This document shows positions 10,498 through 51,251 of a DNA stretch of 64,000 bases, piece after piece. The notes below the pieces were generated by a model. The model saw only the letters and a program-made list of their open reading frames with translations, made no database searches and was not told the origin of the DNA. Both the position numbers and the translations under genes were made by a program. The stretch is from NCBI GenBank assembly GCA_963730145.1, contig CAVSQT010000006.1, forward strand, positions 48,430 through 112,429, given 5' to 3'. Within the stretch, counting starts at the first letter, position 1; each line of letters begins with the position of its first letter. This stretch comes from an uncultured Solirubrobacterales bacterium. GTDB taxonomy: Bacteria; Actinomycetota; Thermoleophilia; Solirubrobacterales; 70-9.

Positions 10498-12718
10498 TCA
10501 CTGATGTGCAGCAGGGGTGACGCCCTCGACCCGCTCCGCCAGCGAGCTCCAGGCGCGCTCGGCGTCCTCGAGCGCGACATCGATCTCCGTCTCCCCGGCG
10601 GAGATCGAGATCCGCTCGCCCGAGGCCGCTCCGATCACGAACACGTCGACGCCATCGTCCGCCAGCGCTGCGAGCTTCTCGCGCTCGCCCGCGAGCAGGA
10701 AGCCGCCCGGGCCCTCGCCGAACAGCGCCGTCTCGCCCGAGCAGCCGCGCTGTTCGACGAGCTCGTCGAGGTCGGCTTCGACCCCGACCCCGCCGGCGAT
10801 CGCCATCTCGGCGAGCGCGCAGGCGAGGCCGCCGTCGCTGATGTCGTGCGCGGCCGAAACCGCGCCGTCTCGCACCGCCTCGCGCACCGCCGCGATCGCG
10901 GCGTTGACATCTGCGACCGCGATCGTGGGCAGCCCGGGGCCGAGCTCGCCGCGAAGCTTCGCCAGCTCGGAGCCCGCCAGAGACGGGGAGAAAGGGCCGC
11001 AGAGCGCGATCGCGTCGCCGTCGCGCAGCGCCAATCCGCCCGCGCGAGTGACATCGGGCAGCTCGCCGACGAGGCCGACCACCGGCGTCGGGTAGATCGG
11101 CCCGCTCTCGGTCTCGTTGTAGAGCGAGACGTTGCCGCCGACCACGGGTATCGCGAGCTCGTTGCAGACGTCGGCGAGGCCCTGAACCGCGCGCTCGAGC
11201 TGCCAGGCGACGTGGGGCTTCTCGGGATTGCCGAAGTTGAGGCAGTTCGTCAGCCCGAGCGGCTCGGCACCGACGCAGGCGAGGTTCTGCGCGCATTCGA
11301 GCACCGCTTCGATCGTCCCGGCGTAGGGATCGCAGGCCACCCGGCGGCCGTTGCCGTCGATCGCCATCGCGATCGCCGAGCCCGCCTCGGGCAGCGCCAG
11401 GACCGCGGCGTCGGCGGATTCGGGCCGGCGCACCGTCCGCGAGCCGACGATCGAGTCGTACTGCTCGAAAGCCCACCGCTTGCTGGCGATGTTCGATGAG
11501 CCCAAAAGCGCCAAGAAGAGATCGCCCGCAGCGGCCGGAACCTCGGCAATCGGACCCTCGCTGCCGTAGATCCAATCGATCGGGCTCTTCCGGCTCCAGG
11601 TCGTAGAGCGGGCAGCCGTCGACCAGGGCCTCGACCGGCATCTCGCCGACGACCTCGTCGCCGCGCAGGACGCGAACCTGGCCGGAGTCGGTGACTTCGC
11701 CGATCGCGGCGGCGCCCGTCTGCCATTTCTCACACAGCGCGATGACTCGGTCGACGTTGTCGGGCTCGACCACAGCCAGCATCCGCTCTTGCGACTCGGA
11801 GACCATGATCTCGAACGGCTCCATGTCGTCCTCACGCAGCGGCACCCGGGCCACGTCGACGTCGATCCCCAGCCCGCCCGCCGAGGCCATCTCGGCGCCC
11901 GACGACGTCAGCCCGGCCGCGCCGAGGTCCTGCAGCGACACCAGCAGGCCCTGTTCGAGCAGCTCGAGACAGCACTCGAGCAGCTTCGACTCCTCGAACG
12001 GGTCGCCGATCTGAACCGTCGGGCGCTTCGACTCGTCGCCCTCCTCGAGCTCCGCAGACGCCAGCACCGAGGCGCCGCCGATGCCATCGCGACCCGTGGA
12101 TGCTCCCATCAGCACCAGCGTGTTGCCGGGCCCGGCCGCGGCGGCGCGGACCATCGAGTCCGCTCGGGCGAAGCCGACGCACATCGCATTGACGAGGCAG
12201 TTCTGCTCGTACGGCGGCTCGAAGTAGACCTCGCCACCGACCGTGGGCACGCCGATCGAGTTGCCGTAGTGACCGATGCCTGCGACGACGTGGTCGAACA
12301 GGTAGCGCGAGCGCCGCGAGTCCAGCTCGCCGAAGCGCAGCGAGTCGAGGATCGCGATCGGCCGAGCGCCGAGAGCGAAGACGTCGCGCATGATGCCGCC
12401 GACGCCGGTTGCCGCGCCCTGGAAGGGCTCGACGGCGCTGGGATGGTTGTGCGACTCGACCTTGAAGGCCACCGCCCAGCCATCGCCGATCGAGACCGCC
12501 CCGGCGTTCTCCCCGGGCCCCATGAGCACCCGCGGGCCCTCGGTCGGCAGCCGGCGCAGCAGCTTCTTCGAGTGCTTGTAGGCGCAGTGCTCGGACCACA
12601 GCAGGCTGAACATCGCCAGCTCGACGTCGTTGGGCTCGCGCCCGAGCTTGCGGTTGATCAGCTCGAACTCCGCATCGGTGAGCCCGAGCTCGCGGTGCTT
12701 TGCCGCGGAGGCCGTCAA
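10498..12718 (-). CDS. purL: Phosphoribosylformylglycinamidine synthase subunit PurL (one frameshift near 11590)
   Basis: LWSEHCAYKHSK, VESHNHPS, GGIMRDV and DLGAAGL in ORF 10118-12718, then continuation in ORF 10498-11835. Confidence 0.9.
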
Positions 12719-12842: not shown

Positions 12843-14044
12843 ATGGTCAGCAGCAGGCAGAAACGTCGCGCTCGCGCTCGCGCTCGTTGCCCTCGTGGCG
12901 CTCACGGCCCCCGCGGGCACGAGCGCCGGCAAGCCGAATCCCGCCGTGCCCGAGGCCACCGTCGATTCGACCGGCAACAACTCCGAGCTCGTCTCGAGCG
13001 TGCCGATCGCGACCTCGCCGGGGCTCAGCGACACGGTCGTGATGTCGGTGGGTCCCGACGACCTGCCGCGGCTCGAGGCGGGCGACCGTCTCGAGGTCTC
13101 GAGCGAAGTCCAGGTGTCGACGACATGCGTGGTGCCCGGGCAACGGTGCGTCGGCAGCAGCTACACGTTCAGCCCGACGATCACCGCGCGCATCGTGCTC
13201 TCGTCGTCGACGGACCCGGCCGCCGCCGCGATCCCGCTTTCGGAGGTCAAGCAGGTGCGCTGCAAGCAGCGCCGCCCGCAGCGAAATCATCACTGCACGC
13301 TCGCCTTTCCCAACCTGCAGACGTCGATAGGCGATCCGGCGACGCTGCCCTGTCCCGACAACGCCTGCTACGTCAACCTGATCCTCTCGGCCTCGAACAA
13401 GCGCGCCGCCAAGGGCGACGTCGTCGTCATGGGCGCCGATCGCCCCGACGGCTCGGTCAAGCGCGACAAGGGCCGTCTCAACGTCGTCCACTCGCGCGTC
13501 GACACTCCGGGGCCGGCCGAGCTCTCGAGCACGACGCCGGTCAGCACCAGCCTGCCGCTGAACGAGGGCAAGGTCCTCAAGCGCCGGGTGATCTACTCGG
13601 TGGAGATCCCCGCACCGAAGAAGGGCGAGGTCCTCACCGCCGACGGCAGCTTCGTCTCGACCATCGACAACCTCCCGTTCAACACCTTCATCTCCTCGCG
13701 CGTGATCGTGGCCGAGACGCCGACCTCGATCGAGCCCGCCGGCCTGGCGACATCGTCGTCTCAGTTCGGCGGCGACCTCACGGAGACCAACGGCTTCAAC
13801 TGCACCCAGGGTGCGAGCGGCTTCGCCACGCCCTGCACCACGGTCAAGGCGGGCGCCGCCCGGATCACCCGCGACGCGGTCGTCGATACTGCCGGCACCC
13901 CGGCAACCTTGTACGTGAACTTGATCGCCTCGGCCAAGCCGTTGCTGTATCCGATGCAGCGACTGAAGAAGTTTCACCGGGTCGACGGTCACGCCCGGCA
14001 GCGGGCTGCGCGTCCTGCGCTACACCCCGCCCCTGCCCCAGTAA
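12843..14044 (+). CDS. Secreted Cys-rich hypothetical protein (two frameshifts)
   Basis: An ATG at 12843 and the signal-like [19 protein letters not shown] are in adjacent frames, separated by an AAA run. About 10 Cys in apparent pairs. The plausible C-terminus LRVLRYTPPLPQ-stop (TAA 14042-14044) is in another frame. I recognise no family. Confidence 0.5.
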
Positions 14045-14049
14045 CTGCC

Positions 14050-14808
14050 TCAGTCCGCTGCGACCCAGCCCTTCGAGGCGTCTGCGGTCGTGGTCACGTC
14101 GGCGACGACGACAGAGACGTTGTCCTTGCCCCCGGCGTCGAGCGCCAGGTCGACCAGCGTCTGTGCGGCTGACCCGCGCCGAGGCCTCCAGCAGCGCGCG
14201 AGCGAACCGCAGCCTCGTCGACGAGGTCTGTGAGACCGTCCGAGCACAGCAGGAGCCGGTCGCCGGCTCGAGCCGGCACCGTGGCGATCGTCGGACGCCG
14301 GTCCGCCTGACCATCGAGGACGGCCGTCACGACCGAGCGCTGCGGATGGGTGCGCGCCGCCTCCTCGTCCAGTGCTCCGCTGTCGATCAGCTCCTGGACG
14401 TAGCTGTCGTCGCGGGTGAGGCGCGTCAGCGAGCCGTCGCGCAGCAGGTAGGCCCGGGAGTCACCGAGGTTGCCGACCGCGTAGTTGTCATCGGCGACAG
14501 CGACGGCGGTTACCGTCGTGCTCATCCCGGCCGTTTCGGGATCGGCAGTCCGAGATGAAGCCGACGCTCGCGTTTCCCGACGACACCGCCCCCTCCAAAG
14601 CGGTCGCGAGCGAGCCGTCCAGCCGGCACTTGTCGAGCAGGATGAGCTGGTCGATCACCGCCGCGCTGGCCACCTCGCCGGCCGCCGCACCGCCGACGCC
14701 GTCTGCGACGGCGACCAGCCGGGGGCTGGCGTAGACACTGTCCTCGTTGTGTGACCGAACGAGGCCGGTGTGGGTGCTGACGGCGGGTTCCAGGGCGAGG
14801 ATCGTCAT
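14050..14808 (-). CDS. PP2C-family Ser/Thr phosphatase (two frameshifts)
   Basis: HTGLVRSHNEDS, VADGVGG, GDSRAYL, LLLCSDGL, and DAGGKDNVSVVV at the C-terminus. Confidence 0.8.
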
Positions 14809-14842
14809 CGCGCAAACCGTATCGTCCCGACCGGCAAAGCTG

Positions 14843-16282
14843 TCAGCGACAGCTCTCGCCGGCACAGCGCGAGAGCGCGTCGAGGCGCTCGCCGAGCTCG
14901 CCGACGAGGTCATCGCGCGCTGGGTCGGCGGCGAGATCGTCGAGCTGGCGCGGGTCCGAAGCCATGTCGAAGAGTTGCTCACCGCCCTCGGCGTAACGGG
15001 CGTACATGAGGTCGCCGCGACGGATTGCCTCGTAGCGGCGCTGACCGACGAGGTACTCCAGCATCACCTCGCGCTCAGGCTGGGTCTCACCGGATGCGTA
15101 AGGCAGCAGCGAGACGCCATCGGCCTCGAGGCCGGCCTCGGCCGAAGCGAGCTCGACGATCGTCGGCGCGAGGTCGATGTTGGCGACGAGCTGGTCGCTC
15201 GTCTCGCCGCTGGGAAAGCCGGGGCCGCGAACGATCAGCGGCACTCGCGCCGACTCCTCGTAGGGCAGCTCCTTGCCGAGCAGCCCGTGCTCGCCGAGCA
15301 GGAAGCCGTTGTCGGAGGTGAAGATGAAGACGGTGTCGTCGAGGCTGTCGCTCGCACTCAGCTTCGCCACCAGGTCGGCGACCATCTCGTCGACCGCGAG
15401 CAGGCTCTCGAGCCGTCCGCGCGCGACAGCCTCGAGCTCACCGGCAGCGATCCGCTCGCGCGTCGTCCGCGCTCGAGCAGCCAATGCCTCGGGCAACTCC
15501 TCACCGCTCTCGGAACCTGCCAGCTCGGCCGGCAGCTCGTCGAAGGCGCCGAGGTGGCGTGGCGCCGGCCGCGGGTCGCGCGTGGCGCCGGTCTCCTCCT
15601 GGGAGCCCTCGCCGTGGGGGGCGAGGGGGGCGACGATCAGCAGGAATGGATTCGGGTTGCGGGTCGCCTCGCCCAGCACACCGACGGCCTTCTCGGTGAG
15701 CACGTCGGTCAGGTAGTCGGCGCGATCGTCGCCATAGGAGACGATCTCGCCGTTCTCGTTCAGCTCGTAGTCGTACATCTCGTGCTCGGTTCCGGCGGTC
15801 GCGGCGAACCAGTCGTCCCACCCGGGCGGAACCTCGTCCGCGCGGTTGCCCAGCGCGGCTGCCCCGTAGCCGTTGAGGTACTTGCCGACGAATGCCGTGC
15901 GGTAGCCGGCCCGCCGCAACCACACCGGCAGCGTCTCGGATCCGTCGAGCGCCGCGTATCCGCCTCGGGGCGGCTCGGCGGAGACGACGCCGTGGTTGTG
16001 GGCGTACTGGCCGGTGAGCAGGGTCGCGCGCGAGGGACAGCACTCCGGCGTCGTCGCGTAGCTGTTCGTGAACTCGAGCCCTTCGGCCGCGACGAGCCGC
16101 TGCAGCTGCGGCATCACCGCCGTCGAGGCGACGTCCTGGTCGTCGGTGATGACGACGACGATGTTCGGCTGCCGCGCGGGCGGGGCGCTCGAGTCGCCAT
16201 CGGAATCCTCAGAACAGGCGCTCAGGCCCGCCACGACCGCGGCGGCCAGCAGCGCCCGTGCGGCGCGAGACGGCGCCGCCAC
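14843..16282 (-). CDS. Cys-type (formylglycine) sulfatase, predicted lipoprotein, GlcNAc-6-sulfatase-like
   Basis: Intact ORF with VITDDQD and the CCPSRATLLTG (CxPxR) motif, plus a lipobox LSAC followed by an acidic linker. The start is chosen at GTG 16282, 4 nt after the upstream stop. The longest ORF starts at 16369 and would overlap the upstream gene by 83 nt. Confidence 0.85.
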   Translation of the reverse strand: MAAPSRAARALLAAAVVAGLSACSEDSDGDSSAPPARQPNIVVVITDDQDVASTAVMPQLQRLVAAEGLEFTNSYATTPECCPSRATLLTGQYAHNHGVVSAEPPRGGYAALDGSETLPVWLRRAGYRTAFVGKYLNGYGAAALGNRADEVPPGWDDWFAATAGTEHEMYDYELNENGEIVSYGDDRADYLTDVLTEKAVGVLGEATRNPNPFLLIVAPLAPHGEGSQEETGATRDPRPAPRHLGAFDELPAELAGSESGEELPEALAARARTTRERIAAGELEAVARGRLESLLAVDEMVADLVAKLSASDSLDDTVFIFTSDNGFLLGEHGLLGKELPYEESARVPLIVRGPGFPSGETSDQLVANIDLAPTIVELASAEAGLEADGVSLLPYASGETQPEREVMLEYLVGQRRYEAIRRGDLMYARYAEGGEQLFDMASDPRQLDDLAADPARDDLVGELGERLDALSRCAGESCR

Positions 16283-16286
16283 CGCC

Positions 16287-17297
16287 CTACGCGGTAGGCG
16301 CGGTCGCGCCCTTCGCGCCCTTTTCCTCGGCGCGCTTGCGGCCCGCGTCGGTGCTGAGCTCGTAGCCAAGCGTGACCAGCATGTCGCCGGCGACGGCCTC
16401 GTACTCGGCGACCTCCTCCGGTGACATCCGCTCGCGCCACATGTCGATGCGATCCGAGCGCGGCGGCTCCTTGGCGAGCCGATGGCTCTCGAGCCGCGTC
16501 TCGGCAGGCTGATCGGGACGATTCTTTCGCGGTAGGTCGCGTGCCTTCTCGGCCAGGCGGCCCTCGGCGCGCTCGTGGTAGTCGAGCATCACCGGGTCGA
16601 AGTCGAGCTCGATGAAATCGCAGACGCGACGCAGGACGCCCTCGGTGTCGCCGACGAGGTCCTCGAAGCGGACCTCCATGTAGTGGTTGACGTCGGGCGC
16701 CATCTTGCGCGCCTTGCGAATCCGGTTGCGCCACAGCCGCGCCGATTCCGCGTAGCTCTCGGGACCCCAGTTCATCCGCAGGTGCGAGAGCGAGACGTCG
16801 CGGCCGTCGCGGATGATGTGGACGAAGCGCGCTTCGGGCAGCACGCGCTGGATCCGGCGCATCTCCTTGACGTAGCCGGGGGTCTTGTCGCCATAGCGGG
16901 TCTTGCCCTCGCGCTCGGCGTAGGTCATGTAGAAGGTCCGGATCGCGTCGGCGGCGGTGACCGGGTCGAGGGCGACGATCTTCTCGCGCAGCTCGACCGC
17001 GTCGAGATGGAAGTCGCCCCAGCGCTTGTGGTCGATGACCAGGTTGGCCGCGTCCTCGCCGCTCTGCTTCGAGCGCTCGAAGGACTTGATCAGCTTCGGC
17101 ACCCAGTGGGTCTCGCCGGGGATCGCGACCTCGGGGTGAGAGTCGAGCATCAGCCGCAGCAGCGTCGTGCCCGAGCGCGTCACGCCGCAGACGAACGGCG
17201 CCGGCGGCGGCGTCTCAGAGCGCCCGCGCAGGCGGCTGCCGGCGCGGATGATCGACACCCGCTTGCGGTACTTGTCGATTGTGTCGCCGAGTGACAT
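16287..17297 (-). CDS. Sulfotransferase family protein (ST1)
   Basis: Intact 336 aa ORF. Has a 5-prime-PSB-like GVTRSGTTLLRLMLDSHP and a 3-prime-PB-like IIRDGRDVSLS, and is a paralogue of ST2-ST4. Confidence 0.8.
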   Translation of the reverse strand: MSLGDTIDKYRKRVSIIRAGSRLRGRSETPPPAPFVCGVTRSGTTLLRLMLDSHPEVAIPGETHWVPKLIKSFERSKQSGEDAANLVIDHKRWGDFHLDAVELREKIVALDPVTAADAIRTFYMTYAEREGKTRYGDKTPGYVKEMRRIQRVLPEARFVHIIRDGRDVSLSHLRMNWGPESYAESARLWRNRIRKARKMAPDVNHYMEVRFEDLVGDTEGVLRRVCDFIELDFDPVMLDYHERAEGRLAEKARDLPRKNRPDQPAETRLESHRLAKEPPRSDRIDMWRERMSPEEVAEYEAVAGDMLVTLGYELSTDAGRKRAEEKGAKGATAPTA

Positions 17298-17310
17298 GAA
17301 ACCGGGCAGG

Positions 17311-18436
17311 CTAGCCGGTATCGGCGAGCTCCAACAGCTCGCCGATCCCCGCCACGGTGTGCTCCCAGCGCCGTTCGGTGTCGCGCACGCGCACGGCGCC
17401 GGCCGCGAGCTCGGCTCGGTAGGAGTCGTCGCCGAGGCGCTCGATCGCCGCCGTCAGCTGATCGACATCGGGCTCGATCGCGGCGATTCCCGACTTCGCC
17501 GTCCCCTGCTCGCGCCCGCCGACGAGCAGCCCGTTGACGCCATCGTGGATCGCCTCGTCCATCGGCGGCGCCGCGTTCGTGATCGCGGGCTGGCCAAAGG
17601 CGATCGCCTCATACAACGGCAGTCCCAGCCCCTCCCAGCGAGCCGGCGCGACACAGACGTCGAAGCCCGCCAGCTCGCGCAGGTGCTCGGCGGTCGGCTG
17701 ATCGCCCACCCGAACCTCGATCCGCGAATCCCTGGCCGCTGCCTCCTCGGCCGGCCGCACCTGCTTACGCTCCACCTGAGCCTTGACGACCAATCGAAAC
17801 CGCGGATCCGTCGTCCTCTCAAACGCCTCCAGCACCGCCTCCAGCGGCTTGCGATGGCCCAAGAACCCACCCGGGAACACGAACCGAACCAAGTCAGACG
17901 ATGGGGAGGGTGAGGACCCGAACGATGCGAACGCCTCCTCGCCCTCCCACGACGGCAATCAGCTCGGGATGACACCCCCAAGGGACGTACGGGCTATCGA
18001 TCCCCATCGACGCGTACCGCTTCTGCTCTGCGCGGGTGAAGGAGAAGATCACGTCGAAAGCCTCCAGCGCCCCGGCGACGTGCTCGTCGGCGAAGTGCTC
18101 CCAGACGAAGCGGCCGATCGTCTTGACTCCGCGCGCGCGCAGCGAGGCGAGCTCGTCGAACTGGTAGTTCTGATCGCAGAAGATCGCCTCGATGCCGTTG
18201 GCGGCGACCCAGCTCTCGTACTCGCCGAGAGGGATGTCGTAGGCGGAGCCCTCGGTGACGCCGGGCTGGTCCCAGACGTCGTCGCGGTCGAGCGCCCCGG
18301 GTCGCGGGCCGCGCTCCTTCTTCGGCCGCGCCAGCACGAACGTCTCGTGGCCGAGCTCGTCGAGGGCGGACCGCGTTTGGCGGCCGACCACGGGCTGGCC
18401 GCGGTTGAACCACTTCGTGACGACGCCGACCTTCAC
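17311..18436 (-). CDS. GT4-type glycosyltransferase (GT1), one frameshift near 17950
   Basis: The N-terminus VKVGVVTKWFNRGQ...DELGHETFVLA and the C-terminal half CVAPARWEGLGLPLYEAIAFG (EX7E-type region) lie in two frames. The GTG start overlaps the GT2 stop (GTGA). Confidence 0.8.
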
Positions 18437-19529
18437 GAGACGCCGGCGAGAAGCGCGGAGAGCCCTTCCTTGGTTCGTTCCCAGCTGCGCTCGCCCTCGC
18501 GAAGCTCGCGGGCGCCCGGCGCTCAGGCGCTCGCGCTCGTCGGCATCGCCGAGGCGCTCGATCGCGGCGGTGAGCTGGTCGAAGTCGGGGTCGAAGGCAG
18601 GGATGCCCGAGCCGGCCTCGCCCCATGGGACCGAATCGACGCAGATCCCGTTGACGCCGTCGAGGACCACCTCGTTCATCGGCGGCGAGTCGTTGGTTAT
18701 CGACGGCATGCCGAAAGCGACCGCTTCGTAGAGCGGCAGACCGAGGCCCTCCCAGCGTGAGGGCGAGAGGCAGACGTCGCAGGACGCGAACTGGCGCAGG
18801 TGCTCGTCGGTGGGCCGGTCCTCGAGCTCGATCTACGACCCGCGTGTCGCCGCCGGCCGCCCGCTCGAGCTTGTTTGCCTTGCGATCGACCTGGCCGCGG
18901 ATCAGCAGCCGCAGGTGGTCGCCCTCGGCGCGAACGAACGACTCGACGATCTCCGGAAAAGGCTTGCGCTTGCCCATGAACGATCCGGGGACGACGAAGC
19001 GAACGAGACCGTCGCTCGTCCGTTGCTCCTCGCGACCTGCTCGGCGACCGCGATCAACTCGGGATGACATCCCCAGACCAGCAGCGGGCTCTCGATCCCG
19101 AGCGCTGCGATAGCGCTCCTGCTCGGCTTTCGTGAACGAGTAGATGACGTCGTATGCCTCGCTCGCGGGCGCGGCGTCGTCGGGGGCGAAGCTCTCCCAG
19201 ACGAAGCGGCCGATCGTCTTCACGCCGCTCGCTCGAACCGCCGCGATCTCGCTGAACTGATCGTTTTGGTCGCAGAGCACGACGTCGATCGAGTTGTCGC
19301 GCGTCCACGCCAGGTAGTCGGCCTCGGGGATGTCGGCTTCGCCGCTGTGCGTGACGCCCGGCTGGTCCCAGACCGGGTCGGTCACGCGCTCCTGCTGGGC
19401 TCTCGGGCCCTTGCCCTGCTTGGCGAGGATGAAGGTCTCGTGACCGAGCTCGTCCAGGGCCGAGCGAATCTGCCGCGACACAACCGCCTGCCCCGACGCA
19501 AACCATTTGGTGACGATCCCAACCCTCAA
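18433..19529 (-). CDS. GT4-type glycosyltransferase (GT2), paralogue of GT1, at least 3 frameshifts
   Basis: MRVGIVTKWFASGQ...DELGHETFILA, then VVPGSFMGKRKPF, then MPSITNDSPPMNEVVLDGVNG, in different frames. Confidence 0.75.
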
Positions 19530-19647
19530 CGTCAGCCACCACCGCAGCTCGAGCGGGTGGCACGGCAGAGGGGCCCCACCCGAGCACCCGCCGGGAGCGC
19601 AGGGTGGGGAGTCGCTGCCGCGACAGGACCCGCGAGCCGCAGCCCTC

Positions 19648-20592
19648 TCACGCCGCTTCGATCAGAGCCGTGGCTTTCTCGACCGCGTCAGGGCCCGTCG
19701 GGTAGCCGAGCTCGCTCAGCAGCTCCCCGGCGATCGCCTCGAACTCCTCGCGCTGCTCGGCGGTCATCTGCGTGCGCCAGCGCGCGACGCGGTCGGCGCT
19801 CGGCGGCTTCGTCGTCATCGCGTGGGTGGCCATGCGGCGCTCGACGCTGAGCTCCTTGGCGCGACCGTCGGCCGGCAACGCTCGTGCCATCTCCTTCAGC
19901 CGCTCGCCCGAGCGCTCGTGGTAGGAGAGCATCACGTCGTCCCACGGCAGCTCGATGAACTCACAGACCTTGCGAAGCACCGGCTCGGTATCGAGGATCA
20001 GGTCCTCGTAGCGGATCTCGATGTAGTGGTGCAGCTTCGGCGAGTCCTCGCGAGCCTTGGTGATCTTCTTCTGCCAGCGCCTGGCGATGTCGCCGGCCGT
20101 GAGATCGCGCACGGTGCGGTCGAGAACCGAGAGGGCGACATCGCGCCCGTCGCGGATCACGTGGACGAAGCGCGCCTCCGGCAGCGCCCGCTGGATCAGC
20201 TTCATCTTCTGCACGTAGGTCGGCGTCTTCTCTCCCCAGCGCGGCTTGCCCTGCTGCTCGGAGTAGGCGTCGTAGAAGGTGCGAACCGCCGGTCCCGCCT
20301 TGACCGCGGGGAGCGCCCGCAGACGGCCGAGCATCTCCTCGTCGGAGAAGCCGAAGTCATCCCACTCGCGGGCCGACTTCATCGCCTCGAGGGCGCTCTC
20401 GGGGGTTGCGTCGTCTGCGCGCGCGGCCTTGATCAGGTCGGGCACGAAGTGCGTCTCCGGCGGGATCGTCAGGTCCGGATGGGCGTCGAGCATCATCCGC
20501 AGCAGCGTCGTCCCGGAGCGGTTCATGCCGACGACGAACGGGATCGGGTCACCGCTCGGCTCGTCACCTCGAAATCTCGACAGGATTCCCAT
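19648..20592 (-). CDS. Sulfotransferase family protein (ST2)
   Basis: Start taken at MGILSRF (ATG 20592). GMNRSGTTLLRMMLDAHP, EKTPTYV, VIRDGRDVALS. Intact. Confidence 0.8.
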   Translation of the reverse strand: MGILSRFRGDEPSGDPIPFVVGMNRSGTTLLRMMLDAHPDLTIPPETHFVPDLIKAARADDATPESALEAMKSAREWDDFGFSDEEMLGRLRALPAVKAGPAVRTFYDAYSEQQGKPRWGEKTPTYVQKMKLIQRALPEARFVHVIRDGRDVALSVLDRTVRDLTAGDIARRWQKKITKAREDSPKLHHYIEIRYEDLILDTEPVLRKVCEFIELPWDDVMLSYHERSGERLKEMARALPADGRAKELSVERRMATHAMTTKPPSADRVARWRTQMTAEQREEFEAIAGELLSELGYPTGPDAVEKATALIEAA

Positions 20593-20606
20593 AGAAGGCG
20601 AAAAGG

Positions 20607-21686
20607 CTACTTGTCGGCGGAGCCGCCGCGCAGCCGCGACAACAGCCCACCGCCCCCGCTGCCGCGCTCGGCGCGCTCCTTCGAGCCCGCCCATTCCTCC
20701 CGCGGCGTCCAGCTCTCGCGAGGTGTCTGCGTCTCGTAGCCGAGATCGTCGAGCAGCTGCCCCGCCGTCTCCTCGAACTCCGCGTTCTCCTCGGCGCTCA
20801 TCTCGCGCTTCCACACGGCGACCCGCTCGGCGTCGGGCGGCTTCGTCGTCATCGCGTGGGCGGCGACGCGTTCGCCGGCCTCGCGCTCGGGGCGGCCCTT
20901 CTTCGCCGGCAGCGCCCCGGCCATCTCCTGGAGACGCTCGCCGGCGCGCTCGTGGTAGGTCAGCATCGCCGGATCGAACTCGAGCTCGATGTGGGCGCAG
21001 ATCCGCCGCAGCACCTCCTCGGTGTTGTCGATCAGGTCCTCGTAGCGGACCTCCATGTAGTGCTCGACCTCCTCGGCGTCGAGCTGCGACTTGGCGATCT
21101 TCTTGCGCCAGCGCCGCGCCATCTCGCGCGCGGGGATCGGATCCTTGCCCCGCTTGGCGATGCGGGCGTTCTGCGAGAGCCCGGCGTCGCGACCGTCGCG
21201 AATGACGTGGATGAAGCGAGCCTCGGGCAGCGTCTTCTGCAGCTTCTTCATCTTGCGCACGTAGTCGGGCGTCTTGTCGCCCCAGCGCGACTTGCCCTGC
21301 TTGCGGGCATAGAGGCGATAGAACGCACGCAGGGCGTCGCTGGTGTTGAACGGCTCGATCGCCTCCATCTCGGCCAGCAGCTCGGCCTCGTCGAGCCCGA
21401 AGTCGTTCCAGCGCCGACGCTGGTCGCGAACGATGACGTTGGTCGCGATCGTGGCGTTGAAGCGCAGCCGTCCCGATGCCTGGATGAACGGGTTGGCGAA
21501 GTGGGTCTCGGGCGGCATCGCGAGCTCGGGATGCGCGTCGAGCATCATCCGCAGCAGCGTCGTGCCCGAGCGCCCGACGCCGACGACGAACGGCGCCGGC
21601 GCAGCGTCCTCGGCGCGCCCGCGCAGGCGGCGGTTGCGAAGCGTGCGAAGCGAGTAGTCCAAAGCCACGAGCCGAGAGTGTTGCAA
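20607..21686 (-). CDS. Sulfotransferase family protein (ST3)
   Basis: Intact 359 aa ORF with GVGRSGTTLLRMMLDAHP, DKTPDYV, VIRDGRDAGLS, and a Gly-rich tail. Confidence 0.8.
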   Translation of the reverse strand: MQHSRLVALDYSLRTLRNRRLRGRAEDAAPAPFVVGVGRSGTTLLRMMLDAHPELAMPPETHFANPFIQASGRLRFNATIATNVIVRDQRRRWNDFGLDEAELLAEMEAIEPFNTSDALRAFYRLYARKQGKSRWGDKTPDYVRKMKKLQKTLPEARFIHVIRDGRDAGLSQNARIAKRGKDPIPAREMARRWRKKIAKSQLDAEEVEHYMEVRYEDLIDNTEEVLRRICAHIELEFDPAMLTYHERAGERLQEMAGALPAKKGRPEREAGERVAAHAMTTKPPDAERVAVWKREMSAEENAEFEETAGQLLDDLGYETQTPRESWTPREEWAGSKERAERGSGGGGLLSRLRGGSADK

Positions 21687-21707
21687 CTAACAGGCTGGGA
21701 GTTCGGC

Positions 21708-22615
21708 TCAGTCGAGGTAGCCGAGGTCGCGCAGCAGCTCCCCGGCCACCGACTCGAACTCCGCTTGATCGGCAGCGCTCATCGCCGTTCGCCAGCCCCC
21801 GCTGCGCTCAGCTGTCGGCGGTCTTGCGGTCAGCGCATGCGCCGCGGCTCGCTCTGCCCCCGACCTGCGCGAGTCGCCCGCCCGCGCCGGGCAGGTCGCG
21901 GGCGATCTCGCCGATCCTGGCCTCGGCGTCGCGGTGGTAGTCGAGCATCGCCGGCGAGAACTCCAGCCGGCAGAGCTCACACACCCGCCGCAGTTGCGCC
22001 TCGGGGTCGGCTGACGAGATCCTCGTAGCGCAGTTCGAGATAGCGGCCCCGCAATCTCTTGGCCTGCCGTCGCGCCTTGTCGATGCGATCGCGCCACAGC
22101 CGCGCGGTGTCGGCCAGCGGCTTGCCCTCTCCCATGCCGCGACGGCGTCGCGAGATGGCGACGTCGCGCCCGTCGCGAATCAGGTGGATGAACCGCGCCT
22201 CCTCCAGCACCTGTCCGATCTCGCGCATGTGGCGAACGTAGGCCGGCGTCTTCTCGCCCCAGCGGGGCTTGCCGGCTGTTCGCGCGCAGAGCGAGTAGAA
22301 GACCCGCAGGATCGCGCGCGGCATCGGCGCCGTCGAGGCCGGCGGTGGCGTCGCGAAAAGCAGCGGCGTCGAGCCCGAAGTCGCCCCAGTTTCTCGCCGA
22401 GATGATCTCTTCGACCACGGCTTGACGATCCTGCGTGACGCCGCGCGGATTCGATCACCGCCGGCACGAACTGCGTCTCGGCGGGAATCGTCAGCTCGGG
22501 ATGGGCGTCGAGCATGAGCCGCAGCAGCGTCGTTCCCGAGCGCCCGACGCCGACGACGAACGGAGCCGGGACCAGGTCTGCCCTGCCGCGGCCACCGAAA
22601 GCCGAGCCGGTTCAC
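21708..22615 (-). CDS. Sulfotransferase paralogue (ST4), at least 5 frame changes, possibly a pseudogene
   Basis: GVGRSGTTLLRLMLDAHPELTIP, GEKTPAYV, LIRDGRDVAIS and AAHALTARPP...GELLRDLGYLD are scattered over three frames. The GTG start overlaps the purQ stop (GTGA 22612-22615). Confidence 0.6.
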
Positions 22616-23284
22616 GCTGGAGCGAGCGCCGCCGAACGGGTCAGCGATTCGAACAGCACGAGGCCGTCCTCGGAACCGGTGAGAGCATCGACGGCATGCT
22701 CGGGATGGGGCATCAGGCCGACGATGTTGCCGGCCTCGTTGGCGACGCCGGCAACGTCGCCGATCGAGCCGTTCGGGTTGTCGCCGTCGGCGTAGCGAAA
22801 CACCACCTGCCCGCGGCGCTCGAGCTCGGCCAGCAGCTGCGGCGGCGCAAACCAGCGGCCGCTCATGTGCTTGACCGGGATCGAAAGCCGGTCACCGGGC
22901 CGGCAGGCCACGGTCGCCGCCGATTCGGCATTGACGACATCGAGCTCGACCTGGCGACAGAGGAACCGCAGGCCCTCGTTGGCCAGCAGGGCGCCAGGCA
23001 GCAGCCCCGCTTCGCAGAGGACCTGAAAGCCGTTGCAGATCCCCAGCACCGGCCCGCCGCCGGCGGCGAACTCGGCGCACAGCCTCCATCGCGGGCGAGA
23101 AGCGCGCGATCGCGCCGGCGCGCAGGTAGTCGCCATAGGAGAAGCCGCCCGGGATGACGACCGCGTCGATGCCGGCGAGGTCGGTCTCCTCGTGCCAGAC
23201 CAGGCGCGCCTCGCCGACGCGCTCGCACGCCTGCACCGCGTCGCGCTCGTCGCAGGAGCCGGGGAACTGCAGCACCCCGATCAC
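22612..23284 (-). CDS. purQ: Phosphoribosylformylglycinamidine synthase glutaminase subunit (one frameshift)
   Basis: [27 protein letters not shown], catalytic GICNGFQ, and MPHPE. Confidence 0.9.
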
Positions 23285-23499
23285 GTGATGATCTCGTAGT
23301 CCTCTATCAGCGTGTTCGCCAAGAGCTGCCGGCAGAGCGCGTCGAGATCGGCGCCGTCTTCGGCCTCGAGCTCGACCATGCGACCGACGCGCACATGGGA
23401 GACGCCGTCGAAGCCGAGCGCGGGCAACGCTCGCTCGACCGCCTTGCCCTGCGGGTCGAGGATCCCCTCCTTCGGCCTGATCAGCACGCGCGCCTTCAC
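23281..23499 (-). CDS. purS: Phosphoribosylformylglycinamidine synthase subunit PurS
   Basis: Intact 72 aa ORF with KEGILDPQG...NTLIEDY. It overlaps the purQ start by 4 nt. Confidence 0.9.
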
Positions 23500-23512
23500 G
23501 GACTCAATCTAA

Positions 23513-24514
23513 CTAGGGACGTCGGCGCCTGGCGCGTCCCATGAAGCCCGACAGGCGTGAGCGCGCCGGCGGCGGGGTGAGGTCGAGCTCCGGTCCATCG
23601 GTCTCGGCGAGCTCGAGGATCTCCGCGTAACCGGCCTGCTCGAGCTCGCGCTCCATCCCGACCGCTCTCGCTCCCTGCGCCCAGCGCGGGTCGTCGGCGA
23701 GATGGATGTCTGGGGTCGTCGCGCACGTTCTCTTCTGGCCCAAGACGTCACCGAGGCCGGCACCGGGCGACCGAGCAGGCCGTAGATGCGCCCGAGCTCG
23801 CGGGCGGGATCGGCGCGAAGGTCCTCGAGGCGGACCATCGCGTAGCGCTCGCCGAACAGGCGCTCGCCGTCGCCGCTGGTTGCGGCGAAGGCAGCGCGCC
23901 AGACCAGCAGCGGCCGCAGGAAGTCGGGCACGTCGGCCGGGAGCTCGAGGGTCGCGTAGCGCGCGAGCAGATCCTCGGCGATGCGCCGGCTCGACCACAA
24001 CCGGCGCCCGGTCCGCGCGGTGAAGAAGGTGTCGGCATCGGGGTAGATGTCGGTGCGTCGCCTGCGCCCGAGCAGCATCGAGGCACAGACCGCGCGCGGG
24101 TCGCGGACGAGATGGACGATGGCGGCGTCCGGATCGATCTCGGCCACCGCCCCGAGCTTGTGGTGCAGGCGCGTTTCCTTGATCGCCACATCGGGCGCGT
24201 CGTCGAGCAGGCTCGCCAAGAGCTCGCTGACGTGCGCTGGAAGCTCGGGGTCGAGCTCGATCTCGGGCGCTCGCGGACCGCCCCAGTTGAACAGGTCGAT
24301 CTGAAGCCCCGGATAGTTCTCGGCGCGAAAACGGTCCCGGCGGCGCCGCGTCTCGGCGAAGACATCGATCTCGGTCGCTCCGCTGCCTCCGCCGATCGTC
24401 TCGCTGTTCTCGCGCAGCGGCTCGTAGAAGCAGCGTCAGGTTCGCGTCCTGGCCCAGCGCGTCGTAGAGGATCGTGGTCCCCGAGCGGCGCAGGCCGATG
24501 ACGAAGAGGTTCAT
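23513..24514 (-). CDS. Sulfotransferase-like protein (ST5), divergent from ST1-4, two frameshifts
   Basis: MNLFVIGLRRSGTTILYDAL (P-loop-like 5-prime-PSB) and VHLVRDPRAVCAS (3-prime-PB-like). Lies between purC and purS. Confidence 0.65.
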   Translation of the reverse strand: MNLFVIGLRRSGTTILYDALGQDANLTLLLRAAAREQRDDRRRQRSDRDRCLRRDAAPPGPFSRRELSGASDRPVQLGRSASARDRARPRASSARQRALGEPARRRARCGDQGNAPAPQARGGGRDRSGRRHRPSRPRPARGLCLDAARAQATHRHLPRCRHLLHRADRAPVVVEPAHRRGSARALRDPRAPGRRARLPAAAAGLARCLRRNQRRRRAPVRRALRDGPPRGPSRRSRPRARAHLRPARSPGAGLGDVLGQKRTCATTPDIHLADDPRWAQGARAVGMERELEQAGYAEILELAETDGPELDLTPPPARSRLSGFMGRARRRRP

Positions 24515-24580: not shown

Positions 24581-25429
24581 TCAGAGCGTGCGGCCGCTGA
24601 TTCGCTCGTAGGCCTCGACGTACTTGGCGCGGGTGCCCTCGACGACCTCGCCGGGCAGCTCGGGTGCAGGCGGTGTGTGGTCCCAGCCCGACTCGTCGAG
24701 CCAATCGCGCACGTACTGCTTGTCGAATGAGGCTTGGCTGCGACCGGGCTCGTAGTCGTCGGCCGGCCAGAAGCGCGACGAGTCCGGGGTCAGGACCTCG
24801 TCGCCGAGCACCACCTCGGCCCCCGGCGAGGCCCCGAACTCGAACTTGGTGTCGGCGATGATGATCCCGCGCTCGGCGGCGTGGTCGCGGGCGTGGGAAT
24901 AGAGCTCGAGCGTGGTGTGGCGAAGCTGCTCCATCAACGCCCGGTCGCCGATCACCTCGACCGCGCGCTCGAAGTCGATGTTCTCGTCGTGGTCGCCGAT
25001 CTCGGCCTTGGTTGCCGGGGTGAAGATCGGCTCGGGCAGCTTGTCGGACTCGCTCAGGCCGGCCGGCAGCTCGATCCCGCAGACCGAGCCCGTCGCCTTG
25101 TACTCCTTCCACCCCGAGCCGGTGATGTAGCCGCGGGCGACGCATTCGATCGGGTACATGTCGAGCTTGCGCACCCGCAGCGCGCGCCCCGCGACCTCCT
25201 CGGGCACCTCCTGCGAAACGAAGTGGTTGGGACAGATGTCGGCCGCGGTCTCGAACCAGAAGACCGACATCTGCGTCAGCACCGCACCCTTGTCGGGGAT
25301 CGCGGTCGGCAGGATCACGTCGTAGGCCGAGATCCGGTCGGAGGCGACCATCAGGAGGTCGTCCTCGAGCTCGTACATCTCGCGCACCTTGCCCGAGGCG
25401 ACGAGCTTGAGATCGGCGAGTGCGGTCAT
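24581..25429 (-). CDS. purC: SAICAR synthase
   Basis: Intact 282 aa ORF with [27 protein letters not shown] and LTPDSSRFW. Confidence 0.95.
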
Positions 25430-25495
25430 CGGGCGGCGATGCTAACAACGCGGGCGACCGCCAAAGCCCGCAGCCTCGCCGGCCTCACGTCGGAA

Positions 25496-30596: not shown

Positions 30597-31115
30597 TCAC
30601 GTAGCGGGAGATCGTGCAAGCCGGCCGCGATTCGCCTCGCGTGCGATCAGCTCGGCGGTCGCCCGCCGACGGTAGTCGAAGATCTTCTCGAGATCGCGAA
30701 AGACGAAGAATCGCTGAGCCAGGCTGCCCAGCGACCCGTAGCCGATCCGGTAGCGGACGCGATCGCGGATCACCGTCCAATCACCATCGCGTTCGAACTC
30801 GTGCGTGTGGTGCCAGAGCGCGTAGGGCCCGCGAAGCTGCACGTCGACGAAGCGGTGAGGCGGCTCCCAGGCTTCGATCCGCGTCGTCCAGCGAACCGGG
30901 ATCCGATGGACGACGAGGCGATAGGAGATCAGCGCCCCTTCGCGCATCTCGATCGGCAGCTGCGAGGTGATCCGAAAGCCGAGCCATGGCGGCGTGATCG
31001 CCTCGAGGTTGGAGGCGTCGGAGTAGATCGTGAAGGTGCTCTCCAGGGGCGCTCTCACTCGCTGCTCGCGCTCGAGCAGCTGCTCGCCCGGTCGCAACGC
31101 GGGATCGGCGCTCAC
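30597..31115 (-). CDS. SRPBCC (START/cyclase-dehydrase fold) family protein
   Basis: NLEAITPPWLGF, HRIPVRWTTRIEAWEPPHRFVDVQLRGPYALWHHTHEF. The GTG start overlaps the GT3 stop (GTGA 31112-31115). Confidence 0.65.
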   Translation of the reverse strand: MSADPALRPGEQLLEREQRVRAPLESTFTIYSDASNLEAITPPWLGFRITSQLPIEMREGALISYRLVVHRIPVRWTTRIEAWEPPHRFVDVQLRGPYALWHHTHEFERDGDWTVIRDRVRYRIGYGSLGSLAQRFFVFRDLEKIFDYRRRATAELIAREANRGRLARSPAT

Positions 31116-32190
31116 GTTGCGCTTTCGATCAGCTCGGCGTAGTCGGACTTCGTCTGCTCCCACGAAAGTCGGCGGCGGGCTGCGACGACGCCATCGCGCA
31201 GCTGCGCGAGGAGGTCGGCATCCGTCGTCGCGTTCATCGCCGCAGCGAGACTCCGGACCCGCGGCAGGTAGGCGGCAATTCCCGACTTCGCCTTGCCGGC
31301 TCGACGTGTCTTCACCAAGAGCCCGTTCTCGCCGTCGCGGATGACCTCGTTCATCGGCGGGTTGTCGTTGGTGATCACCGGCAGTCCCAGCGCCATCGAT
31401 TCGTACAGGTGCAGGCCGAGCCCCTCCCATCGGCTCGGGGCGACGCAGACGTCGGCCGAGGCGAACAGGCGCAGGTGCTCGTCGGTGGGCAGGTCCTCGA
31501 GCCGAACCTCGATACGTGAATCCCGCGCCGCACCCCGTTCGAGCAGGTCGAGCTCGCGCTCGACCTGGCCCTTGATCAGCAGTCGCGCGTCGTCGGCGCT
31601 CACGCGCCTGAAAGCCTTCAGCACCTCCGCCACGGGCTTTCGCTTGCTCAGGAACCCGCCGGGATAGAAGAAGCAGTCCGCCCGGGCGGATGATTGCTTC
31701 TGCGAAGCGAAGCAACTCGGGGTGAATTCCCCAGCGCACGCGGGGGCTGTCGATACCCATACCGGCGTAGCGCTCCTGCTCGCAGGCGGTCAGCGAGTAG
31801 ACGATGTCGAGAGCCCGCTTCGCCGGCTCGACGTGCTCCGCGGCGAATTGCTCCCAGACGAAGCGCCCGACCGTGCGCACCCCGGTTTCGCGCAGCGCCT
31901 GGATCCCCTCGAAGCCGTAGTTCTGATCGAAGAAGGCGAGCTCGAGCGAGTTCTCGGCGCCCCATCCGACGACCTCGTCTGCCGGGATCTCGTAGCTGGA
32001 CGCCTCGGTTACGTCGGGCTGGTCCCAGACGCCGGAGTGGTCGATGAAAGCGGGGCGGATGTTCTTGCCGCGAGTAGGCCGGGCGAGCACGAACGTCTCG
32101 ATGACCGAGGTCGTCGAGAGCCGAGCGAAGCTGGCGGGCGACCACGCCCTGTCCGCGATTGAACCAGTAGGCGCAGATCCCGATTCGCAT
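31112..32190 (-). CDS. GT4-type glycosyltransferase (GT3), paralogue of GT1/GT2, at least 2 frameshifts
   Basis: MRIGICAYWFNRGQ...LGH, ETFVLARP...VRTVGRFVWEQF, CVAPSRWEGLGLHLYESMALG. Confidence 0.75.
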
Positions 32191-41827: not shown

Positions 41828-41904
41828 CGCCGCCAGGATATGTTGCGCCCGCATGGCGGCGATCGAGCCAGGCGTCGTCTCGGTAGAGGTCTGTTCGCCG
41901 CTAC

Positions 41905-42549
41905 GGTGCCCGTATCGCCGAGCCGCGCCCACAAGCGAGAACCGCCGCCGCCTGGAGAGGGCTCGCGCGTGATCGGCTGATCGAGTCACGGCTCACTCCG
42001 AACACGATCTCGATCACCGGGCTGGCGCTGCACGTGCCCGCGGTGATCCTGATCGTCGAGGGCAATTTTGTGCTCGCGGGCCTCGCCTTCATCGTCGGCT
42101 CGGTGATGGACACGCTCGACGGTCGCTACTCGCGCATGTCGGGCAAGGGCACGATGTTCGGGGCGTTCTTGGACTCGACCCTCGACCGGATCGAGGAGGG
42201 CGTGGTGTTGACGGCGATCGCCTACTACTTCGCCGACGGCGGCGATGCGATTCCGGCCGCGGCCTGCGTGCTCACCGTTCTCGGCTCGCTGATGGTCTCC
42301 TACACGCGGGCTCGCGCTGAGGCGCTGGGAGTCGAATGCAAGGTCGGGATTGCCACCCGGCCCGTGCGGGTGGTGATACTTTCAATTGGCCTCGTGTTCG
42401 GCGCCGGCGATCTGATCACCGATGTCGACCTGCTCCCGGCAGCGATCTACACGATGGCCGGCTTGACCGCATTCACGGTCGGACAACGCGTCTGGCACGT
42501 GCGCAACGAGCTCAAGGCGCTGGAGGTCGCAGACGTCTCGGAGCTGTAA
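41905..42549 (+). CDS. CDP-alcohol phosphatidyltransferase, probable phosphatidylinositol-phosphate synthase (5-prime end unresolved)
   Basis: Motif DTLDGRYSRMSGKGTMFGAFLDSTLDR (D-G-x2-[AS]-R...G-x3-D-x3-D). It lies directly upstream of ino1. No in-frame start was found upstream of TPNTISITG, so a frameshift is likely. Confidence 0.7.
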   Translation, partial: GARIAEPRPQARTAAAWRGLARDRLIESRLTPNTISITGLALHVPAVILIVEGNFVLAGLAFIVGSVMDTLDGRYSRMSGKGTMFGAFLDSTLDRIEEGVVLTAIAYYFADGGDAIPAAACVLTVLGSLMVSYTRARAEALGVECKVGIATRPVRVVILSIGLVFGAGDLITDVDLLPAAIYTMAGLTAFTVGQRVWHVRNELKALEVADVSEL

Positions 42550-42606
42550 CCAACGCACAAACAGCGGGTAGTTCGCCTTCCACCCGCCTCCAGGAGGACC
42601 GGCTTC

Positions 42607-43797: not shown

Positions 43798-43850
43798 GCG
43801 CGCTGCGTGCGACCGCTCCGTTGACGGGGCGGGCGGGTTGAACCGATCGA

Positions 43851-43868
43851 GGAGTACCTGCGTACTCC
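43851..43868 (+). terminator. Hairpin GGAGTAC-CTGC-GTACTCC after ino1
   Basis: Perfect 7-bp stem 54 nt after the ino1 stop. It could alternatively be a leader element of the next gene. Confidence 0.3.
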
Positions 43869-43905
43869 TATCGTCGGCAGGAAACAACCAAAGGAGGAAG
43901 GCTCA

Positions 43906-51179: not shown

Positions 51180-51251
51180 GGCCTCGTGGTGTAACGGTTA
51201 GCACGTCAGGTTTTCAACCTGGAAGCTCGGGTTCGATTCCCGGCGGGGCTA
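51180..51251 (+). tRNA. tRNA-Glu (anticodon UUC)
   Basis: Cloverleaf folded by hand: acceptor GGCCTCG/CGGGGCT (two G-U pairs), D arm GTGT/GCAC, anticodon arm TCAGG-TTTTCAA-CCTGG, T arm TCGGG-TTCGATT-CCCGG. No encoded CCA. Confidence 0.85.

Follow-up and report, generated by a model that had tools for sequence, protein, structure and literature searches.

The 64,000-nt stretch of DNA analysed here (the window; positions refer to its whole length) comes from an uncultured Solirubrobacterales bacterium and carries, on its minus strand, an array of sulfotransferase (ST) and glycosyltransferase (GT) genes embedded among genes of de novo purine synthesis. The same order of genes recurs in about 55 species-level metagenome-assembled genomes (MAGs), and the gene arrangement marks the array as a predicted conserved, lineage-wide operon of uncultured Solirubrobacterales/Thermoleophilia. 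Its enzymes very probably sulfate a glycosylated acceptor at several sites, with 3'-phosphoadenosine 5'-phosphosulfate (PAPS) as the donor. We give roughly even chances to a more specific reading, in which a cytoplasmic PAPS-dependent pathway, expressed from a conserved promoter at purC, sulfates a small soluble glycoside at several positions.

Sulfotransferases and glycosyltransferases of the array

The open reading frame (ORF) listing, combined with third-position GC (GC3), gives the minus-strand order purC, ST5, purS, purQ, ST4, ST3, ST2, GT2, GT1, ST1, sulfatase and PP2C; downstream of PP2C lie X434 on the plus strand and then purL and purF on the minus strand. GC content is about 70% across the window, and that of the array is the same as that of its flanks. 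The initial annotation had described the eight genes from ST4 to PP2C, and its gene order, strand and families are borne out by the ORF listing and, for each family, by Pfam; it had missed X434, ST5 between purC and purS, and a third GT paralogue, GT3.

Pfam profile searches, proposed as a check at that stage, place the STs in the sulfotransferase family Sulfotransfer_3 (gathering cutoff 27 bits). ST1 (16287..17297, minus strand, as are all genes described in this section), ST2 (19648..20592) and ST3 (20607..21686) are intact and score 133, 132 and 128 bits (E 2.3e-38, 5.8e-38 and 8.5e-37), and the divergent ST5 (23509..24435, with a frameshift near 23720) scores 43 bits (6e-11). ST4 (21708..22615) is recovered as tblastn pieces in three frames and contains at least four single-base insertions, its indels being judged relative to L004, one of the related loci described below. 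ST1–ST4 are paralogues, as had been claimed, with mutual identities of 46–51%. Computed over 27–72 sequences, RSGTT, KTPxY, RDGRDVxLS and PxETH are at least 90% conserved within the ST1–ST4 orthogroups, and the ST5 orthogroup conserves RRSGTT and RDPRAVtaS (RDPRAVTAS in the window) to the same degree. Both PAPS-binding motifs, 5'-phosphosulfate-binding (5'-PSB) and 3'-phosphate-binding (3'-PB), are kept in all ST orthogroups, together with the Glu of PxETH, which we take to be the catalytic base, in ST1–ST4; this conservation supports the assignment of the STs to the PAPS-type enzymes.

Among solved structures, ST1 is most similar to the ST domain of a polyketide synthase (PDB 4gox, E 2e-16), the human tyrosylprotein sulfotransferases TPST1/2 (2e-13 to 1e-11) and the CurM ST domain (4gbm, 4e-11). 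When ST1 is aligned with them, the Glu of PGETH coincides with PPELH in the CurM-type domain 4gox and with GEETR in TPST1. The array STs share with these TPST/CurM-type enzymes the fold family, the 5'-PSB RSGTT and the 3'-PB RDGRD..S, but they are only distantly similar to them (E 2e-16 to 1e-11), are stand-alone soluble proteins and occur in arrays of 4–11 paralogues; their acceptor is probably neither an acyl chain bound to an acyl carrier protein (ACP) nor a tyrosine. Narrower profiles are not reached: the STs score 27–43 bits against the NCBIfam equivalog for NoeE, the Nod-factor fucose sulfotransferase, where at least 500 are needed, and the Stf0 trehalose sulfotransferase profile PF09037 is hit by ST3 only, at 18 bits against a cutoff of 22. 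No signal peptide or transmembrane segment is found in any ST or GT protein.

GT1 (17311..18436, frameshift near 17930) and GT2 (18433..19529, insertions at 19105, 18835 and 18517) are likewise paralogues, about 51–61% identical to each other. Fragments of the GTs match Glycos_transf_1 at 1e-12 to 5e-15 (4.5e-15 for GT1; 56 bits against a cutoff of 26.4). Both proteins have the E-x7-E motif (RWEGLGLPLYEA in GT1), a pI of about 5 and no hydrophobic segment, and the structural model of a GT1 ortholog has the GT-B fold, with two Rossmann domains (pLDDT 85). Profile, motif and model agree with the earlier assignment to GT4, and we describe GT1 and GT2 as predicted soluble, acidic, retaining GT4 enzymes. 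None of the NCBIfam equivalogs is matched by GT1 or GT2, all scores being at most 32 bits against cutoffs of at least 260.

A Foldseek search with the GT1 ortholog model returns at its top MshA, PimA, sucrose-phosphate synthase, BshA, PglA and GlgM, with TM-scores up to 0.75 (0.74 to MshA and PimA). The nearest folds are mostly those of enzymes with small soluble acceptors; as a test of the acceptor the search is not decisive, the matches being generic for GT4. GT1 and GT2 have the GT-B fold, E-x7-E and solubility in common with MshA, BshA, sucrose-phosphate synthase and GlgM, but the identity to these small-acceptor enzymes is 13–19%, and their N-terminal Gly-rich loop is replaced in the array GTs by an invariant KWFNRGQ.

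Conservation of gene order and the predicted purC-led unit

Scanning a single genome for each GTDB species yielded 78 loci (designated by L numbers), each covering ±10 kb, on which reference proteins were then mapped. The order purC-ST5-purS-purQ-[ST4]-ST3-ST2-[GT2]-GT1-ST1-...-purL-purF is found in about 55 species-level MAGs, whose labels read Solirubrobacterales, Thermoleophilia, Actinomycetota or just 'uncultured bacterium', and its recurrence in about 55 independent species-level genomes is far beyond chance. ST5 stands between purC and purS in 51 loci. Nearly every complete locus of the window's clade holds five STs and two GTs; in a more distant clade ST4 is missing, an extra ST sometimes lies between GT2 and GT1, and 4–11 STs are found per 21 kb. 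GT2 is missing in L054 and L056. L042 (L042:1-20915) and L048 hold 10–11 ST-like ORFs within 21 kb around the pur genes, an expansion that is unusually dense for a bacterium; around the core array of L042, which comes from a complete chromosome of 2.56 Mb, Pfam detects nine further ST-like ORFs as well as a third GT4 gene.

ST1 has 6,973 database relatives; the best 120 of them are 71–100% identical to it (best local alignment), and every source name given for these 120 is a 'Solirubrobacterales bacterium' MAG. The nearest STs outside the lineage are 37–46% identical. Because the paralogues are closer to one another (46–51%) than to these outside STs, the ST family appears to have expanded within the lineage, each copy being retained.

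The nearest STs outside Thermoleophilia (40–46% identical) come from proteobacterial MAGs (L068:6290-12355; L073:8729-12767). In one setting their neighbours encode two oxygenases, an RPE65-type carotenoid oxygenase and a flavin monooxygenase, along with a TetR regulator and a TPR-Sulfotransfer_4 protein; in the other they are beta-oxidation genes, for a thiolase, an SDR (short-chain dehydrogenase/reductase) and an acyl-CoA dehydrogenase. Neither setting includes a GT. Considered as a guide to the acceptor, these contexts hint at hydrophobic molecules, and the hint is not transferable to the array.

At its downstream end the array in the window carries a Cys-type sulfatase (14843..16282, minus strand) and a PP2C phosphatase (14050..14808, minus strand). 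The sulfatase matches PF00884 (171 bits, 3.7e-50) plus SGSH_C, and the lipobox VVAGLSAC and the motif CCPSR are present, in line with the CxPxR motif and lipoprotein nature first attributed to it; its start is set by the 4-nt spacing from the ST1 stop in the initial annotation, the first start codon of the ORF being at 16369. PP2C was reconstructed across frames (frameshifts near 14542 and 14205): its middle fragment matches PP2C_2 (41.7 bits against a cutoff of 24; 1.2e-10), and the N- and C-terminal motifs were recovered across the frameshifts. Both genes stand at the array end in the window and L004 only; L003 has the sulfatase, after which its contig ends. By this distribution the pair would be a recent accessory insertion, outside the conserved unit. 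Of the eight-gene unit first proposed, the adjacency in the window therefore stands; as a functional unit it does not, since the sulfatase and PP2C are confined to the window, L003 and L004 and since ST5 belongs to the conserved unit as well.

The junction spacings quoted at the outset proved correct on checking. The purQ stop overlaps the ST4 GTG (GTGA at 22612-22615); 21 nt separate the ST4 stop (21708) from the ST3 start (21686), 14 nt the ST3 stop (20607) from the ST2 ATG (20592), and 118 nt the ST2 stop (19648) from the GT2 start (19529). The GT2 TGA overlaps the GT1 GTG by four nucleotides (GTGA at 18433-18436), the GT1 stop (17311) is 13 nt from the ST1 ATG (17297), and the sulfatase stop (14843) is 34 nt from the PP2C ATG (14808), with the PP2C stop at 14050. 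Across about 50 genomes the estimated intergenic gaps in the array have medians of 10–27 nt. The 118-nt gap between ST2 and GT2 was considered as the site of a conserved small ORF or RNA; this is ruled out, the gap not being conserved (median 12.5 nt). The overlap between the purQ stop and the ST start (GTGA or ATGA) is, in contrast, real and conserved, being present in 25 of 32 loci, where the GTG/ATG frame continues directly into PAPFVVGVGRSGTTLLR; ST4 is predicted to be translationally coupled to purQ.

No terminator-like site is found on the minus strand between array genes, the sole one lying inside purC, and no riboswitch of the purine, ZTP or any other type was found with Rfam, which gave only two tRNAs. 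A sigma-70 promoter scan of the window gave no match, as expected for an actinobacterium of 70% GC. At 25437..25447 (minus strand), 7 nt before the purC ATG, stands TGTTAGCATCG, an extended -10-like element (TAGCAT) whose columns are at least 80% conserved when 45 purC upstream regions are aligned; this is its only exact copy in the window. It is probably the promoter of the whole minus-strand unit, and its position only 7 nt from the ATG suggests that the purC mRNA is leaderless or near-leaderless.

The unit so delimited would begin with purC (SAICAR synthetase; 24581..25429, minus strand; tblastn 84% to the purC of L001, which has PF01259) and continue through ST5, purS (23281..23499, minus strand; tblastn 85% to L001 PurS, PF02700) and purQ (22612..23284, minus strand; frameshift near 23072) into the array. 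The initial annotation had placed the array between purQ and purL and taken it as co-transcribed with a purine operon. A shared purQ–purL transcript does not hold, as the convergent plus-strand gene X434 separates the array from purL; because X434 lies between PP2C and purL, purL would not be co-transcribed with the array, which we read as the tail of a purC-led transcript and not as an insert. purL (10498..12718, minus strand, frameshift near 11580) would form its own transcription unit, divergent from X434. We note a partly conserved block (AAGACGACATGCACAAT...CGCGATACT, approximate) 5' of purL in the divergent X434–purL spacer, e.g. in L012, L055, L018 and L006, which may act as the promoter of purL itself or in its regulation.

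ST or GT genes occupy three or four junctions of the pur region, namely clpB/purD, purB/purC, purC/purS and purQ/purL. The order in L060, for example, is clpB, ST, GT3, purD, purE, purB, ST, ST, P450, purC, ST5, purS, purQ, and ST3 onward. The region is also interrupted by SnoaL, DM13, RecQ, GFA, GYD and P450 genes. In actinobacteria it is common for pur genes to be scattered with their order conserved, and in M. tuberculosis purQ (Rv0788) and purL (Rv0803) are far apart. Co-transcription with purine genes had been called unusual; the coupling to purQ stands, but the unusualness is weaker, as the pur genes here are broken by these other genes too. The arrangement most likely reflects shared constitutive expression in an insertion-tolerant pur region, not shared chemistry, and the purine link may be only positional.

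Acceptor, product and alternative readings

If the array acts in the cytoplasm on a small soluble glycoside, GT1, together with GT2 where present, would build a mono- or di-glycoside on a soluble, not lipid-carried, acceptor, and each ST paralogue would then move sulfate from PAPS to a different hydroxyl. The product would be a 3–5-fold O-sulfated, strongly anionic, phosphate-free molecule, with PAPS supply and any export encoded elsewhere. In the few genomes that have the exported lipoprotein sulfatase (accompanied by PP2C in the window's subclade), this enzyme would trim or recycle the product at the surface; because such a sulfatase has been added in a few genomes, at least part of the product may reach the cell surface. 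Of the small multi-sulfated glycoconjugate proposed earlier, the PAPS-type STs and the GT4 enzymes are confirmed, and the product itself is still what we infer from them. As the initial annotation had stated for PAPS synthase, FGE (formylglycine-generating enzyme), flippase and polymerase, the scanned window ORFs include no gene for sulfate activation or PAPS synthesis, FGE, flippase, polymerase, priming transferase, acyltransferase or MmpL, and the same classes are missing among the annotated genes of L001, L042 and L060. Neither FGE nor the alternative maturase anSME (anaerobic sulfatase-maturating enzyme) is found among the window ORFs scanned.

Sulfatases with a signal peptide or lipobox lie beside the cluster in eight loci (L011, L033-L035 and L048, plus the window's subclade). 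Those outside the window's subclade are 33–52% identical to the window enzyme, belong to differing lineages of sulfatases and lie at differing positions and on differing strands. Since sulfatases have been recruited repeatedly and independently, a sulfated substrate outside the membrane is suggested. What is decorated could be a polymer or glycolipid of the cell envelope, such as a sulfated polysaccharide, a lipoglycan or a glycosyl-diacylglycerol, with priming, flipping and export encoded elsewhere in the genome, and we consider this rather unlikely. The recurrence of exported lipoprotein sulfatases beside the cluster speaks for it, as do the secreted tandem beta-sandwich protein that adjoins the array in the window's clade, the JGI automatic name '1,2-diacylglycerol 3-alpha-glucosyltransferase' for GT1 orthologs, the presence of PimA and PglA among the top fold matches, and the 10–11 STs in relatives, which suit a complex polymer better than a small molecule. 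However, GT4 enzymes of membrane lipids are typically basic, unlike the acidic GTs of the array (pI about 5). The annotated genes of the window, L001, L042 and L060 also lack Wzx/Wzy, an ABC exporter, a priming transferase, an acyltransferase and MmpL.

Known bacterial clusters for sulfated exopolysaccharide (EPS), moreover, hold their STs together with Wzx/Wzy genes (PMC8205485, PMC13390465). In the cyanobacterial xss (synechan) and Actinoplanes wps-1 clusters, two STs accompany many GTs, eight of them in xss including a priming GT, and Wzx/Wzy/PCP (polysaccharide co-polymerase) genes (PMC8205485, PMC13390465). The array resembles these clusters in joining STs with GTs and, as predicted, in a sulfation that takes place in the cytoplasm, before export (PMC8205485, PMC13390465), but its ratio is reversed (5 ST : 2 GT), it has no polymerisation or export gene and it is embedded in purine genes. 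None of the priming transferase, flippase, polymerase and co-polymerase of a Wzx/Wzy-type sulfated EPS system was found in the window, L001, L042 or L060. Apart from rhizobial and mycobacterial sulfated lipo-oligosaccharides, bacterial sulfated polysaccharides have been reported only from cyanobacteria (PMC8205485, PMC13390465).

A further likeness is to mycobacterial sulfated lipids, for which an actinobacterium uses PAPS to O-sulfate a glycoside or an isoprenoid that a P450 has hydroxylated; the array, too, frequently has a P450 gene as its neighbour. The mycobacterial pathways, Stf0/SL-1 (trehalose-2-sulfate) and cyp128-stf3 (sulfomenaquinone), use a single ST of other subfamilies, whereas the array has several STs, lacks pks, papA and mmpL, and stays below the cutoff of the Stf0 profile.

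Resemblance to tyrosylprotein sulfotransferases (TPST/RaxST) brings in a protein or peptide as the target: the GT4 pair would O-glycosylate Ser/Thr, as SdgA/SdgB and GtfA/GtfB do, the TPST-like STs would sulfate Tyr, Ser, Thr or sugars, and PP2C would act on the same target. TPST1/2 do rank high among the solved structures related to ST1 (E 2e-13), the enzymes are soluble and cytoplasmic, the window's version includes a protein phosphatase, and GT1/GT2 show weak NCBIfam matches to SdgA (5e-4 to 7e-4). Nevertheless, we hold a protein target to be very unlikely, given that the SdgA matches are far under the cutoff, that the polyketide-synthase ST domain 4gox outscores the TPSTs, that PP2C occurs in only two genomes, and that the array holds no substrate gene or conserved small ORF (median ST2–GT2 gap 12.5 nt). 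The neighbouring X434 was considered as the required protein substrate and is ruled out, since the distant clade lacks it yet keeps the ST and GT genes.

The position of the array would acquire a functional meaning if the acceptor were a purine nucleoside, nucleotide or derivative, giving a sulfated or glycosylated nucleoside like ascamycin or nucleocidin. The presence of ST/GT genes at three to four pur-region junctions, the purQ–ST4 coupling, and a pterin glucosyltransferase among the GT1 fold matches would agree with this, and the ascamycin (acm) cluster also joins a sulfotransferase with sulfatases, together with sulfate-activation genes, an amidinotransferase and a radical SAM enzyme (PMC4257720). 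The likeness consists in a sulfotransferase and sulfatases linked to purine, which in acm is the basis of the product; the sulfate-activation, amidinotransferase and radical SAM genes of acm (PMC4257720) are, however, absent from the window ORFs scanned. The cluster is lineage-wide and core-like, while antibiotic clusters are sporadic, and the unrelated SnoaL, DM13, RecQ, GFA, GYD and P450 genes interrupt the pur region as well; a purine acceptor is, on balance, highly improbable.

Several points weigh against the small soluble glycoside that we prefer. The closest solved relatives of the STs act on an ACP-bound acyl chain (CurM-type) or on tyrosine (TPST), not on sugars, and the proteobacterial outgroup STs sit with genes of lipid/isoprenoid oxidation and with no GT. 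The 10–11 STs per 21 kb in some relatives are more than one small glycoside can accept, and soluble acidic GTs are compatible with a protein or lipid-linked acceptor as well. A PAPS-synthesis gene is not seen in the window, and the co-transcription of the array is a prediction from sequence.

Full-text literature searches on Solirubrobacterales/Thermoleophilia sulfotransferases, or on sulfotransferases with purQ/purL, gave no description of the cluster, and the earlier statement that no system of this composition has been characterised agrees with what we found. The enzymes belong to known families; the system as a whole, which matched nothing we found, is set apart by its unusual ST:GT stoichiometry, the absent polymer machinery and the conserved position among purine genes. 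Few bacterial pathways have several sulfotransferases. The fixed set of five STs and two GTs, together with the 10–11 STs in relatives whose genomes measure about 2.6 Mb, points to a highly sulfated molecule of soil bacteria that is abundant and has gone unrecognised; it would matter for the chemistry of the cell surface, for sulfur cycling and for anionic compounds free of phosphate. The ST paralogues would also be a source of sulfotransferases that may differ in target position and hence of interest for biocatalysis, and the purQ–ST4 start/stop overlap offers a clean case, open to testing, in which a gene from outside purine synthesis is coupled in translation to a pur gene.

A more daring version of the small-glycoside reading, which we think unlikely, is that the product is a lineage-defining, persulfated small glycoside whose one or two sugars carry charge at a heparin-like density. 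Its aglycone would derive from the neighbouring terpenoid-type P450, which would make it a sulfated isoprenoid glycoside, or else from purine metabolism, and its synthesis would be tied to de novo purine synthesis via the PurQ coupling. If true, such a persulfated glycoside would constitute a new class among the sulfated metabolites of bacteria, made by a group that ranks among the most abundant uncultured actinobacteria of soil.

Probable assembly errors and neighbouring genes

Between 9000 and 25500 the window contains about one frame-breaking single-base indel per kb. ST4, GT2, GT1 and PP2C are not intact ORFs and were read across at least nine single-base indels; these four genes, ST5, and also purQ, purL and purF are each split over two or three frames. 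Compared with the two closest relatives, single-base insertions lie at 23072, 22600, 22317, 22012, 21867, 19105, 18835, 18517, 14542 and 11579, and 9654 is a further example of a frame-breaking indel. The DNA alignment of the window with L003/L004 (83–88% identity) is noisy, and indels were kept only where both relatives or tblastn frame changes agree. They are most likely assembly errors and not gene decay, because the indispensable purine genes are broken at the same rate and the orthologs elsewhere are single full-length matches. The closest relatives are MFD-series MAGs, which we take to be nanopore assemblies from the Microflora Danica project, an origin that would account for the indels. 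That the array is decaying into pseudogenes in this genome and makes no product, as the frameshifts in ST4, GT2, GT1, PP2C and ST5 might be read, is extremely improbable, given the equal rate of interruption in purF, purL and purQ, the 61–84% protein identity of the window copies to their L001 orthologs once indels are set aside, and the single full-length ortholog matches in most other genomes, short-read assemblies included. We note that any ORF-based annotation of this contig will split genes.

X434 (12850..14050, plus strand, ends approximate owing to indels) was delimited from its GC3 frame and a tblastn match of 56% to L001:10938-12242, and is convergent with the array. Its family of 417 members has no Pfam domain and is restricted to this lineage; X434 itself contains Cys and has no Pfam, NCBIfam or PDB sequence match. 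The AlphaFold2 model (pLDDT 86) is that of an all-beta, secreted protein and has no global match among PDB folds. It resembles tandem jelly-roll proteins, among them PNGase F, CBM22 and also birnavirus VP2, weakly and locally, with TM-scores that do not exceed 0.27.

Divergent from purC lies a cytochrome P450 gene (25830..27180, approximate, plus strand; frameshift near 26800) with the heme motif FGGGTRRCIG. By its PDB and NCBIfam neighbours the P450 resembles CYP120, CYP97, CYP51 and terpenoid oxygenases. It is found upstream of purC in about 30 loci and is missing from several with a full array; it is a possible member of the module and a possible lead for the aglycone. GT3 (31106..32099, minus strand), the frameshifted third paralogue of GT1 and GT2 (tblastn 47–53%), lies between clpB and GYD-purD, and its ortholog in L060 adjoins an ST.

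Pfam assigns the remaining coding-like ORFs of the window to purN/purH, RecQ, purB, purE, purD, a GYD protein and clpB; dnaK, grpE, dnaJ and unrelated housekeeping genes are also present. At 41887-43797 (plus strand) a CDP-alcohol phosphatidyltransferase gene is immediately followed by one for myo-inositol-1-phosphate synthase and then by a 229-aa ORF (43825-44514) that has no Pfam match; the pair resembles a module for phosphatidylinositol or an inositol-phosphate solute. Inositol phosphate is used by MshA, which headed the fold matches of GT1, but the inositol locus and GT1 are 20 kb apart. A protein with fn3 and CBM96 domains (60573-62156, plus strand) and two tRNA genes (51180-51251 and 62207-62279, plus strand) are unrelated to the array.

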